64,000 bases of DNA from Escherichia coli (GTDB lineage Bacteria; Pseudomonadota; Gammaproteobacteria; Enterobacterales; Enterobacteriaceae), in the NCBI RefSeq assembly GCF_050920415.1, contig NZ_CP169309.1, one strand, 5' to 3'. Shown here piece after piece: positions 21,891 through 26,376 of this stretch. The translations under genes and the position numbers were made by a program. Numbering within the stretch: the stretch's first letter is position 1; each line of letters starts with the position of its first letter. The notes under the pieces were generated by a model. That model searched no databases. It had not been told where the DNA came from and worked only from the letters and a program-made list of their open reading frames with translations.

Positions 21891-22472
21891 GCGGGGAGTT
21901 TATTCATGGGGGATGTCCTTGTCCGTTCCCAAAACAGGCAACAAAAAACAAATGAGATCAAGGTAATATCTCTTCACTTGCAGGCTCGAACAGCAGGCAA
22001 TTGCCAATATAATAATCTGGCACAAGGGTGAAAAACGCGCACCGCATAAACCGTTGTTATTGCTTAAAGATTAGCCGGATGCCTTAATAGACATCCGCGC
22101 CTTTTCGATTATGGCTCGGAAATCTACGAACCTCTGCACAGTTTACTGGAACGTTTTGGACCACAGCGTTCACAGTACCGACCTGATATGCCGTTCTGGC
22201 GATTATAAGGCGACGGATTCTGGCAAATAGACGATGATAATATGCTTAATGATGTTCAAAGAAATTAGGCCATCATTATATTATTGCTTGCATTTTCTTT
22301 CATTCCCAAAAGCACCCGCCATTAATCCCAGGCGCATTATGCAAAGGAAAATGATTAGGTAAACAATAAGATTTATAATCAGGAAAGGCGACTCGCAATA
22401 AAACGCAAAGTCGCCTTAACATTGGTAAAATATGCCCTTTACTACTCCTGTATCATGAACGGCTCATCACAT

Positions 22473-25400
22473 TTAAAGCTGACGTTGATCCAGACTGCTA
22501 TATATTGCCTTTATTTCATTTTTTACGCTTTCGCCACGGTACACCAAAGACGTATCGTATCGTTGATACTTATCTTCCCGTGCAGCACTGAACCAGTTAA
22601 AAGATCCGACACACAGCAGTTCTTCATCCTCAATCACAATTTTGCTGTGGACACGATTAACCAATTTCGTAGCGATACCCATCTTATTGAGCTTTTCAAC
22701 AGCATCATTCAGCAGATGTTTTTTCTCCTGACGCTTATCATCATCGACATGCGCTATATTGCAGTTTTTATCCGTCACCACAGTAATATCAATGCCCCGG
22801 GAACGGGCCAAAGCCATTGATGCCAGAAATCCCGTTTGCTCCATTTTTTGCCAGGATAACCAAGGGGAAATAATCGTTATTTTCTTTTGAGCTCCGGCAA
22901 GAGTCATGTTCAAAAATTCATCATGCTGCTCCACGCCATGCAGCGTTGAAATTTGTGTATGTGCGGAAATTAAATCCTGTCGTTTATGAAACTCAAATTG
23001 CAACGCATTATTATCTGAAGAAAAGAGATATTTTGCCAATAACCCTCGCGGCGAAAATGCGGGCTGCATCTCGATAAGGTCCATATCGCCAAATACCAGA
23101 AAACTATCTTTAGCGCGTGAGACAGCAACATTGAGGATACTGCTGTTGCTATCAAGAAACCTGCCATCTTCATGTTTTGAGTAGACTGGAGAAAAGAGAA
23201 CAATCGCCCTTTCCGCCCCCTGCAAGGAGTGCACAGTCCCCACTGTCAGTGAACCCTCCTCGTCTTTGCCATTAATTTCCAGCTTACGCAATGACGTTTT
23301 GATAGCATTAACCTGCGCCGAAAATGGCGTCACAACACCAACAACTTTGTACAGTGGTTCCCCGTAATGGCGCTCTATATCATCCTTATGTGCCACCAGC
23401 CATGCTGCTATTGTTTCAGCTTCAAGAGGGTTATAACGGCTCCCCCCATTTGGCTTCATGCCTCTACCATCAATATGTAAATATCCCATTGCGGGGAAAA
23501 TCGTCCCTTTTTCCATCCCTCTTTTAGGCTGCAACTTACCGTGATAGCAAAGTGAGTTACAGTAGCCGATGATGTTATTGAAACAGCGACGATGCTCATA
23601 CAGATACATTCCGCGCTCGAACTTGGGATCATACTGGTAGTGAGAGTTAAACTGGGCTACCTGCATTACGCTGCCAGATGCTGCACTTTTTCCAGACCCA
23701 CACACGTGAGTATATGTATTTATTAACTCTTCCTGAGTGCCACCAGAAATAATATTCTCCTCAAGCATATTGCCCATATCAGTGACGGGTAGACAATTCC
23801 AGATTGGAGCTATTTGCTCCGTATCGCCAATCACCAGCGCTTTCTTCGCCAATGCAAAGGAAGCTGCAGCAACCTCCGGGAGTACCTGCCCGGCTTCATC
23901 GACAATCAGTAAATCAGCAAAGTTATATAAATAATTATTATCCGATGTTCTATCGCCACCAAAAGATTTTCTTCTGTTCATATGGTAAGGCAACATGTAG
24001 CAGGTCATCACCACACAAGGAGTAAGTTTCATTCTTCTTAGCCAACGAGCCTCGGCGATAGTTATCCCGGTAATTCCTTTTTCTTTTTGCAAATTATCTA
24101 TAGCTGCCATATCAATCAGCCAACGCCCCTCCCAATAATGGGTCGCTACCAAGAACGCTGGAAAACGAATCTGAGTATCGGCAAGTTCATCCGCTCCTGA
24201 AAGATTCAATTCATCGTCACCTCTGTAACCCAAAGCATAAGTCAACTCACGCCATTGTTTTGCAGCTTCTATTTCGCGTCGGGCTATATCCTTCGCATAG
24301 TTGATGTTCTGTTGGCACTCATCCTGCTCCTTTTGCGTTTTAGCAATCAAACTATCAATAAATTCATCAATATCTTCGGGATAATTTCCCTGGAACGATG
24401 TCATTCTTGTGCCAAACGTAGAGTCCAGGAAGAGGTTAATCTGGTAATGGCGTTTAGTACGAACAGCAGGAAGCCATGACAAAACCGCATACACTAGCGA
24501 CTCATCAGCACGGTATTGCTGCCACTGCTTTTTACCTCTTGTTAAAAGTGAAATTTCATTGCCAATATTGAGAAGACGTGTGTTTTCGTCCTGAAGATAC
24601 TGGTCGAGATTCTCACTGATGGCTCGCTGTTCATGGCGGATATCATTAAGCCTGCGCCATGTGGGTTCGATTTGCTGAAGTTGAATAAACTGTGAAGTTA
24701 AACGTTCATGCAAAAGCGTCACTACATGCTCTGGTGAATTGCACTCTCCAGCTCCAAACGCCACCTCCGCTTTTTCAAGGTAAAATGCCCGGGCTTTTTC
24801 CAGATATTCCTGGGATTCAACGTGGTTAAAAAAATCTTCAGTCTGGTATTTCTTCGCAGCCTCAACCTGACGGCTTTTAGACGGAAAATAAGCGCCATAG
24901 CTTATTACCTCCGGCAACCAACGACCAGCCATTACGCCAAAACCAGTAGAGAAATCTTTTCCAAAGGCTTCAATAATATTGGTGACGGCCTGATTGTTAG
25001 TTGATGTGGCAATAATTACAGGAGGTTCAGCTTGATTAAGTGCGGCTCTAGTCCATTCGGTGGCGATAATAGAAAGCACCAGCGTAGTTTTACCCGTTCC
25101 CGGAGGACCGTTAACAGCGAGCATATCCCCCTGCTGTTGAGTCAGATAATGGCTCAGGGCATCGCGCTGCGCCACTGCCAGCGGAAACTTATCGCCGGAA
25201 TGCCCCAGACGTTCGCAGAACATAGCATTCTTAGCGAGAAGTGGCTCTAGTGGAACCATTTCATTTGAGGCAAAACGCGTTAATAGAGGAACCTTAACCT
25301 GGCTCATCAGCAGATGGTCATACAAAGGCAGGATATGAACACTGGCCCCTACATGCTGGCTAGCTTTAACAATATAACCGTATCCAGCCCGTTCGTATGG

Positions 25401-25988
25401 CTCAGATGTAGCGACCCAATTTCCAGCGACGTTTCTTAAAAGGTTATCTGACTGTTGAAGATAATTTTGCCAATGCTGACGATACCTGGCATGGCGTTCC
25501 GCTTTCTCTTCGTCAGTTTCTTTGTAATGTTCTGGTTGACCTTCATTAATGGTGGCTGTGTTATGCGTAGTTTTGTATTTGTCATATTGCACCAACTCAC
25601 CAATAGAAAAATGACCGGAAGGGAGAGGTTCAAGCAGATCGCGGGGAATAGTGGCTGAAGCGGCAGGAAACAAAAAACCTTCCCTATTAAGAAGAGCGGA
25701 GGTAACCAGTGGCGTAATAATTGCGGGTGCACCTGCCGTTTGCTCTTTGCCATGCTTTACAATGCGGTTCCACACCTGGGGCCGTAACACGACTTCAACG
25801 TTTTTTACAGACTCCCCTTCACCGTCAAAAAATGCCCGAATAGTTTCGTCATCCAACTGCCCTGCGGTGATATTTATCCACCGAATGAATGATTCCGTAT
25901 CTTTACGTGAAAACGTTCCTTTGCCAGATTCGGCGTCAGCTAGGGAGTTGCGCCAGTATGAAGTGAATCCCAATGTATTGCTGTCCAT
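22473..25988 (-). CDS. Large SF1 helicase (Upf1/Dna2-like ATPase core) fused to a C-terminal phospholipase-D/HKD nuclease domain; candidate single-gene defence protein
   Basis: 1171-codon [15 protein letters not shown] Walker A (aa 294-302; nt 25083-25109); LLIVDEAGQ motif II (DEAGQ aa 697-701; nt 23886-23900); [11 protein letters not shown] and [10 protein letters not shown] resembling SF1 motifs V/VI; C-terminal [21 protein letters not shown] = HxK(x)4D...GSxN signature (nt 22596-22649); sits immediately 3' of tRNA-leuX. Confidence 0.8.
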
Positions 25989-26253
25989 TTCTCATTCCGT
26001 GACATAATAGAAATCATTGATTTCATTGATGTAAATATTACTTATGATTAAACATTGTCCACGATGCGAGCGCGATCGCAATAAATATTGTGCCTGGAGG
26101 ATGGATTAGATTTTCTGAAAGAGCTAAATCCTTAATAGATAAACGCGTACATACTTGGTTCGGTATTCTTAAGGGATTTAATATGGATTGAACCAGGTTG
26201 ACGTTAGTTGAAAAAAACAGTGGAAAAGATTTGTGTGGCGCGGATTTCAGGCA

Positions 26254-26278
26254 TAAAAAAAGACCTCAGTTGAGGTCT
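26254..26278 (-). terminator. Probable intrinsic terminator of tRNA-leuX
   Basis: Hairpin agacctca/tgaggtct; read on the minus strand it is followed by a run of 7 T, directly after the tRNA 3' end. Confidence 0.5.
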
Positions 26279-26291
26279 ATTTACATACTTT

Positions 26292-26376
26292 TGGTGCCGA
26301 AGGCCGGACTCGAACCGGCACGTATTTCTACGGTTGATTTTGAATCAACTGCGTCTACCGATTTCGCCACTTCGGC
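26292..26376 (-). tRNA. leuX: tRNA-Leu (anticodon CAA)
   Basis: Reverse complement reads GCCGAAGTGGCGAAATCGGTAGACGCAGTTGATTCAAAATCAACCGTAGAAATACGTGCCGGTTCGAGTCCGGCCTTCGGCACCA: 85 nt, cloverleaf-compatible, CAA anticodon, encoded CCA end. Confidence 0.95.

Follow-up and report, generated by a model that had tools for sequence, protein, structure and literature searches.

The window analysed here, a stretch of 64,000 nucleotides of Escherichia coli (NCBI RefSeq assembly GCF_050920415.1, contig NZ_CP169309.1), carries on its minus strand an open reading frame (ORF) whose DNA is 100% identical to the RefSeq E. coli gene annotated as "helicase YjhR" (WP_000378101.1). Judged by sequence, this ORF is intact E. 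coli yjhR, and its product is MkoC, the sole component of the type II Mokosh anti-phage system. Type II Mokosh was described as one gene in which an N-terminal Upf1-like helicase is joined to a C-terminal nuclease of the phospholipase D (PLD) family, and Mokosh defence was abolished by mutations in the ATP-binding site or in the PLD site (Millman et al., 10.1101/2022.05.11.491447). The yjhR protein itself was used as the fused Mokosh by Cury et al., whose AlphaFold model of YjhR matched MOV10L1 with a template modelling (TM) score of 0.74 and PLD6/Zucchini with one of 0.63. For the protein of the window, the PADLOC profile of MkoC (PDLC03924) matches residues 1-1169 over profile positions 1-1135 of 1136 (E=0, 1466 bits). 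The gene is an already catalogued defence system and as such adds nothing new; what appears to be new, largely from structure models, is the helical nature of a long insertion in the helicase, the assessment of how the N-terminal domain folds, the exclusion of a second PLD half and the occurrence of relatives that lack the PLD domain. The reading as a whole, namely an intact YjhR/MkoC with the anatomy described below and a mechanism in which it would cut single-stranded DNA (ssDNA), is in our judgement very likely to be correct.

YjhR/MkoC has a calculated mass of 132.4 kDa and, as in type II Mokosh, a superfamily 1 (SF1; COG1112/Upf1-like) helicase lies N-terminal to the PLD-family nuclease in a single polypeptide, with the Walker A, Walker B and HKD motifs intact. 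The helicase has the two RecA-like domains with motifs I, Ia, II and VI that are proper to the Upf1-like SF1B group, while the nuclease has a single PLD fold, some 150 residues in size. Pfam recognises AAA_11 in two pieces (residues 273-461 and 691-729), AAA_12 (795-969) and one PLDc_2 (1029-1153), and returns zero matches for residues 1-270, even at E<=10. A preliminary description of the same DNA, made from the sequence, had drawn attention to an unusual domain layout, in which Walker A starts only at residue 294 and DEAGQ follows about 400 residues later. Both motifs were found where it had placed them (Table 1), with an offset of 403 residues and 395 residues intervening.

Table 1. Coordinates in the window of yjhR, of the domains and motifs of its product and of neighbouring features (residue numbers are those of YjhR)
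Feature	Coordinates	Strand	Remarks
Intact yjhR/mkoC, type II Mokosh	22473..25988	-	ORF, 1171 aa plus stop
N-terminal alpha/beta domain, apparently family-specific, residues 1-268	25185..25988	-	conserved Y11, W12, R13, D18, H79, G104, R116, L119, P121, D136, W173, Y223
Variable loop in N-terminal domain, residues 143-170	25479-25562	-	homolog occupancy
RecA1, first part, residues 269-350	24939..25184	-	Q274/R275, Walker A, motif Ia; Pfam AAA_11, DNA2 alignment, secondary structure
Walker A GPPGTGKT, residues 294-301	25086..25109	-	invariant or nearly so in the family
Accessory insertion in RecA1, residues about 351-654	24027..24938	-	AlphaFold2 pLDDT mostly >84
RecA1, second part including motif II, residues 655-790	23619..24026	-	AAA_11 691-729, DNA2 757-795, strands 658-662 and 693-696
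Motif II/Walker B DEAGQ, residues 697-701	23886..23900	-	sequence, family conservation
RecA2, residues 791-985	23034..23618	-	TVHSLQG 918-924; motif VI VAVSRAK 954-960
Linker, residues 986-1011	22956..23033	-	end point of PLD-less relatives; published constructs split at A995/L996
Single-HKD PLD nuclease domain, residues 1012-1171	22476..22955	-	PLDc_2
HKD active-site motif, residues 1114-1131	22596..22649	-	H1114, K1116, D1121, G1128, S1129, N1131 invariant or nearly so
tRNA-Leu(CAA), leuX	26292..26376	-	3' end faces yjhR
leuX intrinsic terminator	26261-26278	-	AGACCTCAACTGAGGTCT then TTTTTTT; separates leuX from yjhR
Candidate sigma-70 promoter for yjhR	26034..26061	-	TGGACA-16-AATATT, 9/12 matches; consensus match only
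Pseudogene remnant, phosphorothioate-DNA-binding restriction endonuclease	22000..22205	+	RefSeq annotation of identical sequence; coordinates converted from locus L001

The unusual layout is real, yet within the family it is the norm. When 1.84 billion representative proteins were searched exhaustively, 9784 relatives were returned, 1101 of them with E < 1e-30. Close homologs (69-94% identity) are all of about 1171 residues, and many relatives are only 30-48% identical, yet their alignment to MkoC spans from residue ~1-10 to ~1170. In the 253 homologs that hold both helicase motifs, Walker A has a median position of 295, and DEAGQ follows at a median spacing of 403. Conservation, read from an alignment of 73 sequences (A1), reaches into both of the regions that lie outside the helicase motifs: Y11, D18, G43, G104, R116, L119, P121, D136, W173 and Y223 are invariant or nearly so in the N-terminal region, and the same holds, inside the insertion, for R356, W357, G365, E391, R608 and a stretch of 10 residues near 615-624. 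Residues 420-600 of the insertion are divergent in sequence, but are occupied in nearly all homologs.

The N-terminal domain also has a variable loop, at residues about 143-170 (151-180 as read from alignment A1), which may serve as a surface for specificity or interaction. This loop is occupied in about 55% of the homologs and has grown by up to ~100 residues in some distant relatives. The idea that the first 165 residues have been swapped in distant relatives was considered and rejected, with 22 of the 35 such proteins matching residues 1-145; the alignments of distant relatives are split because of the variable insert at ~143-170.

A full-length AlphaFold2 (AF2) model, built on alignment A1, has a mean predicted local distance difference test (pLDDT) value of 91.4 and a predicted TM score (pTM) of 0.87. 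In this model the N-terminal region comprises a helix at residues 3-21, a beta-rich core at ~24-128, a helix of 30 residues at 159-188, and strands and helices up to residue 240. When the N-terminal domain was modelled alone on an alignment of 41 sequences (A2), it took up an identical secondary structure (pLDDT 89, pTM 0.79); the fact that the standalone model folds alike supports an autonomous domain. The domain of about 290 residues announced by the preliminary description is somewhat smaller than was claimed, with ~268 residues in place of 290, because RecA1 starts near residue 270. Its profile found zero matches among PDB sequences at E<=1, and a Foldseek search against AFDB50 returned 141 matches at E<=0.001, the best 50 of which are all members of the MkoC family or fragments of them. 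As far as the models allow one to judge, the N-terminal domain has a fold of its own family, without a neighbour among solved structures, and is neither a recognisable 1B barrel nor a degenerate second PLD half.

In the model, RecA1 is interrupted past motif Ia and resumes at strand 658-662. The insertion between these points is predicted to be wholly alpha-helical over residues 371-653, with long helices at 419-457, 461-494, 507-529, 537-585 and 596-629 (39, 34, 23, 49 and 34 residues, respectively). Its size can be gauged from the sequence alignment of YjhR to DNA2, in which residues 274-350 pair with DNA2 631-697 and residues 691-729 with DNA2 757-795: the two segments bracket the insertion, so that about 60 residues of DNA2 stand where MkoC has about 340. 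The preliminary description had suggested a coiled-coil or accessory insertion on account of a charged, heptad-like peptide, which corresponds to residues 541-585 of YjhR and falls within the 49-residue helix. The long helices of the AF2 model agree with this suggestion; a crude heptad score failed to single out the insertion, so that the term "coiled coil" is taken only from the AF2 helices. The insertion sequence gave 0 matches in the PDB at E<=10 and none in PHROG, no fold search of the insertion alone having been made.

When the YjhR model was compared with solved structures, the helicase part fell among the Upf1-like enzymes: SETX (22.0; 492), Upf1 (21.7 and 21.1; 489 and 483), IGHMBP2 (20.9; 483), ZNFX1 (20.0; 516), DNA2 (18.9; 479) and Sen1 (17.4; 500). 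The two modules might instead be read as ordinary helicase subdomains, enlarged counterparts of two elements of Upf1: the 1B barrel, which stands on stalk helices before Walker A, and the 1C prong, a short helical insertion between motifs Ia and II. Their task would then be no more than to hold or part nucleic acid, with neither sensing nor regulation. This is possible, though on balance doubtful, in view of the N-terminal fold, in which the models suggest no 1B barrel, and of the excess in length over DNA2 given above. No entry for a solved Mokosh structure was found in the PDB, nor did the literature searched contain a paper devoted to the structure or mechanism of Mokosh.

The C-terminal domain of the model matches PLD proteins with a single HKD motif, namely NucT (14.0), Nuc (13.2), SauUSI (13.1) and Zucchini (12.3). 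YjhR contains one HxK(x)4D (residues 1114-1121), which runs on into GSFN and thereby gives the full H-x-K-x4-D-x6-G-S-x-N signature (HSKIVIED-x6-GSFN). More than one HKD motif occurs in 0 of the 253 homologs with both helicase motifs, and a second PLD half is absent from the chain by sequence, by Pfam and in the AF2 model as well, so that the single motif reported in the preliminary description stands. In Nuc, BfiI and Zucchini, the active site is built from two chains that contribute one HKD motif each, and the enzymes are stable homodimers. From this the preliminary description had concluded that the nuclease would need dimerisation, a step that does follow from the precedents just mentioned but that sits uneasily with the published biochemistry of the purified protein.

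Biochemical data come from a 2025 preprint (10.1101/2025.07.10.664194), in which EcMokosh II, with a monomer mass of 132 kDa, was purified and truncation constructs M1-A995 and L996-end were made. The A995/L996 numbering is common to the 1171-residue Enterobacterales clade, E. coli alleles included; since numbering and mass fit, EcMokosh II is taken to be YjhR or a close allele of it, and the purified protein is very probably the same protein as the YjhR of the window. By mass photometry, EcMokosh II measured ~138 kDa without substrate, that is, a monomer. It cleaved only ssDNA (M13, SECphi17) and nicked plasmid, whereas no cleavage of double-stranded DNA (dsDNA) was seen on any substrate, E. 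coli chromosomal DNA included; cleavage was abolished in the nuclease mutant and kept in the NTPase mutant, and defence was limited to the ssDNA phage SECphi17 among 11 phages (10.1101/2025.07.10.664194). A protein that is monomeric in solution and yet cuts ssDNA in a PLD-dependent manner implies that any dimer is transient or substrate-induced, or else that the enzyme is non-canonical.

A further view of the two modules is offered by relatives that lack the nuclease. About a dozen representative clusters have lengths of 970-1040 residues and stop within the linker, at query position ~988-1001 (967-1036 residues and ~990-1000 for the loci listed below); in P0159 and P0165, for instance, the PADLOC match to the MkoC profile is limited to positions 1-973. 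All of them still have the N-terminal domain together with the helical insertion, and the genes that were checked are complete within their contigs, except P0166, which lies near a contig end. There is no common partner gene and the neighbours are heterogeneous, so that a single alternative effector cannot be named from the six loci inspected: a protein of 683 residues in which a PD-(D/E)xK-like motif, "D..E.K", was spotted by eye (L002, 143-5726); an unannotated protein of 209 residues, 8 bp downstream (L004, 4001-7724); a GGDEF protein, 8 bp upstream (L006, 3851-7973); an ART-PolyVal protein and an 899-residue protein, both upstream (L007, 1612-7982); an overlapping CTD1 gene followed by MComp1 (L010, 920-6226); and two proteins without annotation, 872 and 277 residues long (L011, 4001-10493). 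These MkoC-like helicases may represent Mokosh-like systems that use other effectors and have yet to be catalogued. The retention of both modules supports, short of proof, their assignment to the sensor-motor part.

The mechanism that we favour for YjhR/MkoC would run as follows. At rest MkoC would be a monomer, as in the literature, and would engage single-stranded nucleic acid that is exposed during phage replication. It would then move along the strand by ATP-driven translocation, probably 5'-to-3' as expected from the helicase family, ATP binding being needed for defence in vivo, and the strand would be cut at the PLD site, the requirement for which is established in the literature. One HKD motif supplies only half of what a canonical PLD active site needs, and for this reason the nuclease most likely becomes active where a pair of MkoC molecules comes together on the substrate. 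The N-terminal domain and the helical insertion would most likely serve recognition or regulation rather than catalysis, since both persist with the helicase in the PLD-less relatives. A bolder proposal, in which the N-terminal domain is a new fold that senses infection or substrate, the insertion pairs two molecules and the same chassis is reused without PLD beside other candidate effector genes, is to be taken, with all its parts together, as tentative and rather less than probable.

Several points weigh against this mechanism. The dimerisation step is unproven, the purified protein being monomeric yet active. The model is a single-chain AF2 output, which holds no information on inter-domain contacts or oligomers, and the polarity of translocation and the sensing role of the N-terminal domain or of the insertion are inferred only. 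Moreover, the data on defence and cleavage were obtained in the literature with EcMokosh II and not directly with the allele of the window. In the preprint itself, the main text has the enzyme active at all concentrations from 10 nM to 1 uM, while two figure legends have it active at 1 uM only, a mismatch that bears on whether the nuclease needs two molecules paired; and RNA was absent from the substrate panel (10.1101/2025.07.10.664194).

With no RNA in the published panel, the physiological target could be RNA. According to such a reading, the Upf1-like helicase would scan RNA/DNA hybrids or transcripts of the phage, and the cutting of RNA would fall to the Zucchini-like PLD domain, the cleavage of ssDNA being a side activity in vitro; the system would then parallel the MOV10L1/PLD6 pair of the piRNA pathway. 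We regard this reading as rather unlikely. More improbable still is an abortive-infection effector, that is, a nuclease that once triggered attacks the nucleic acids of the host indiscriminately and kills or arrests the cell. It would agree with the nicking of plasmid DNA by purified EcMokosh II and with the lack of a recognisable sequence-specificity module in YjhR, by Pfam and by structure comparison, but dsDNA, including that of the E. coli chromosome, is left uncut by the enzyme. The cutting of phage ssDNA by MkoC remains the reading that we prefer.

The surroundings of the gene bear on its nature. The leuX tRNA is a known site of island integration, and downstream of its 3' end yjhR follows at a distance of 304 bp; past yjhR come, in this order, the restriction-endonuclease remnant, nanS, nanM and nanC. 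No integrase gene is found between leuX and nanS, and no direct repeat of at least 11 nt of the leuX 3' end that would mark the boundary of an island is found downstream of yjhR through to nanS; together, the two negatives indicate that the usual leuX-associated island is absent from the strain. Some O157:H7 genomes do have an annotated integrase at the equivalent position. Among 5426 complete E. coli genomes, only 12 proved to carry yjhR at full length in a megablast search, which more divergent MkoC alleles would escape. About 1700 other E. coli genomes, Rosetta2(DE3) included, hold yjhR in part, and among the matches listed the part retained is the 3' portion from residue ~763. The intact gene beside leuX may represent the ancestral arrangement, later cut short elsewhere by insertion of an island at the tRNA.

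Wu et al. report that in E. coli Mokosh II and type IV restriction systems co-occur and co-localise, and the remnant beside yjhR fits this observation. A fragment that matches the same remnant is annotated in many E. coli genomes. The siting at leuX, the restriction-enzyme remnant and the rarity of the full-length gene are, taken together, typical of accessory defence genes. That yjhR should instead be a housekeeping helicase-nuclease of DNA repair or RNA quality control and not an immune gene, as its bare RefSeq name of "helicase YjhR" and its kinship to DNA2 and Upf1 might suggest, is scarcely credible in the face of these same features, with 3' remnants in so many genomes, and of the experimental anti-phage activity of type II Mokosh.

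The two conserved modules make up ~570 of the 1171 residues of a widespread immune protein, and one of them is without a relative among solved structures. The remaining interest of the protein therefore lies in these modules, in how a monomeric single-HKD nuclease is activated, in the choice between RNA and ssDNA as target and in the PLD-less relatives, which suggest that the sensor-motor part can couple to other outputs. A proposal has been made that Mokosh is related, on the bacterial side, to MOV10L1 and Zucchini, which act as a pair in the piRNA pathway of animals; in view of this proposed kinship, the way in which a helicase controls a PLD nuclease in Mokosh would inform both fields.

Among the known systems, type II Mokosh is the one to which YjhR corresponds throughout: it shares with MkoC the full-length profile match, the order of helicase and then PLD, the intact motifs, the length, the mass and the numbering, and nothing sets it apart. 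Type I Mokosh is related but distinct. The C-terminal half of the YjhR helicase matches the MkoA profiles (E=7e-33 and 2e-26; ~690-990) and its PLD domain matches MkoB (E=2e-12); however, type I consists of two genes, its helicase protein also has a Ser/Thr kinase domain, unlike MkoC, and the MkoA matches stop short of the N-terminal domain and the helical insertion. With respect to the Upf1-like SF1B helicases (Upf1, SETX/Sen1, IGHMBP2, ZNFX1, DNA2, MOV10L1), MkoC differs by its C-terminally fused PLD nuclease, by an insertion predicted as ~300 residues of long helices against ~60 residues in DNA2, and by an N-terminal domain that does not match the accessory domains of these proteins. Among nucleases, SauUSI-type type IV restriction enzymes have the PLD domain at the N-terminus, an SF2 motor and a modified-DNA reader domain, the fold of which was not found in YjhR by structure comparison. 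Finally, the single-HKD PLD enzymes Nuc, NucT, Zucchini/PLD6 and the catalytic domain of BfiI are stable homodimers, whereas EcMokosh II is monomeric in solution and carries its nuclease tethered to a helicase.

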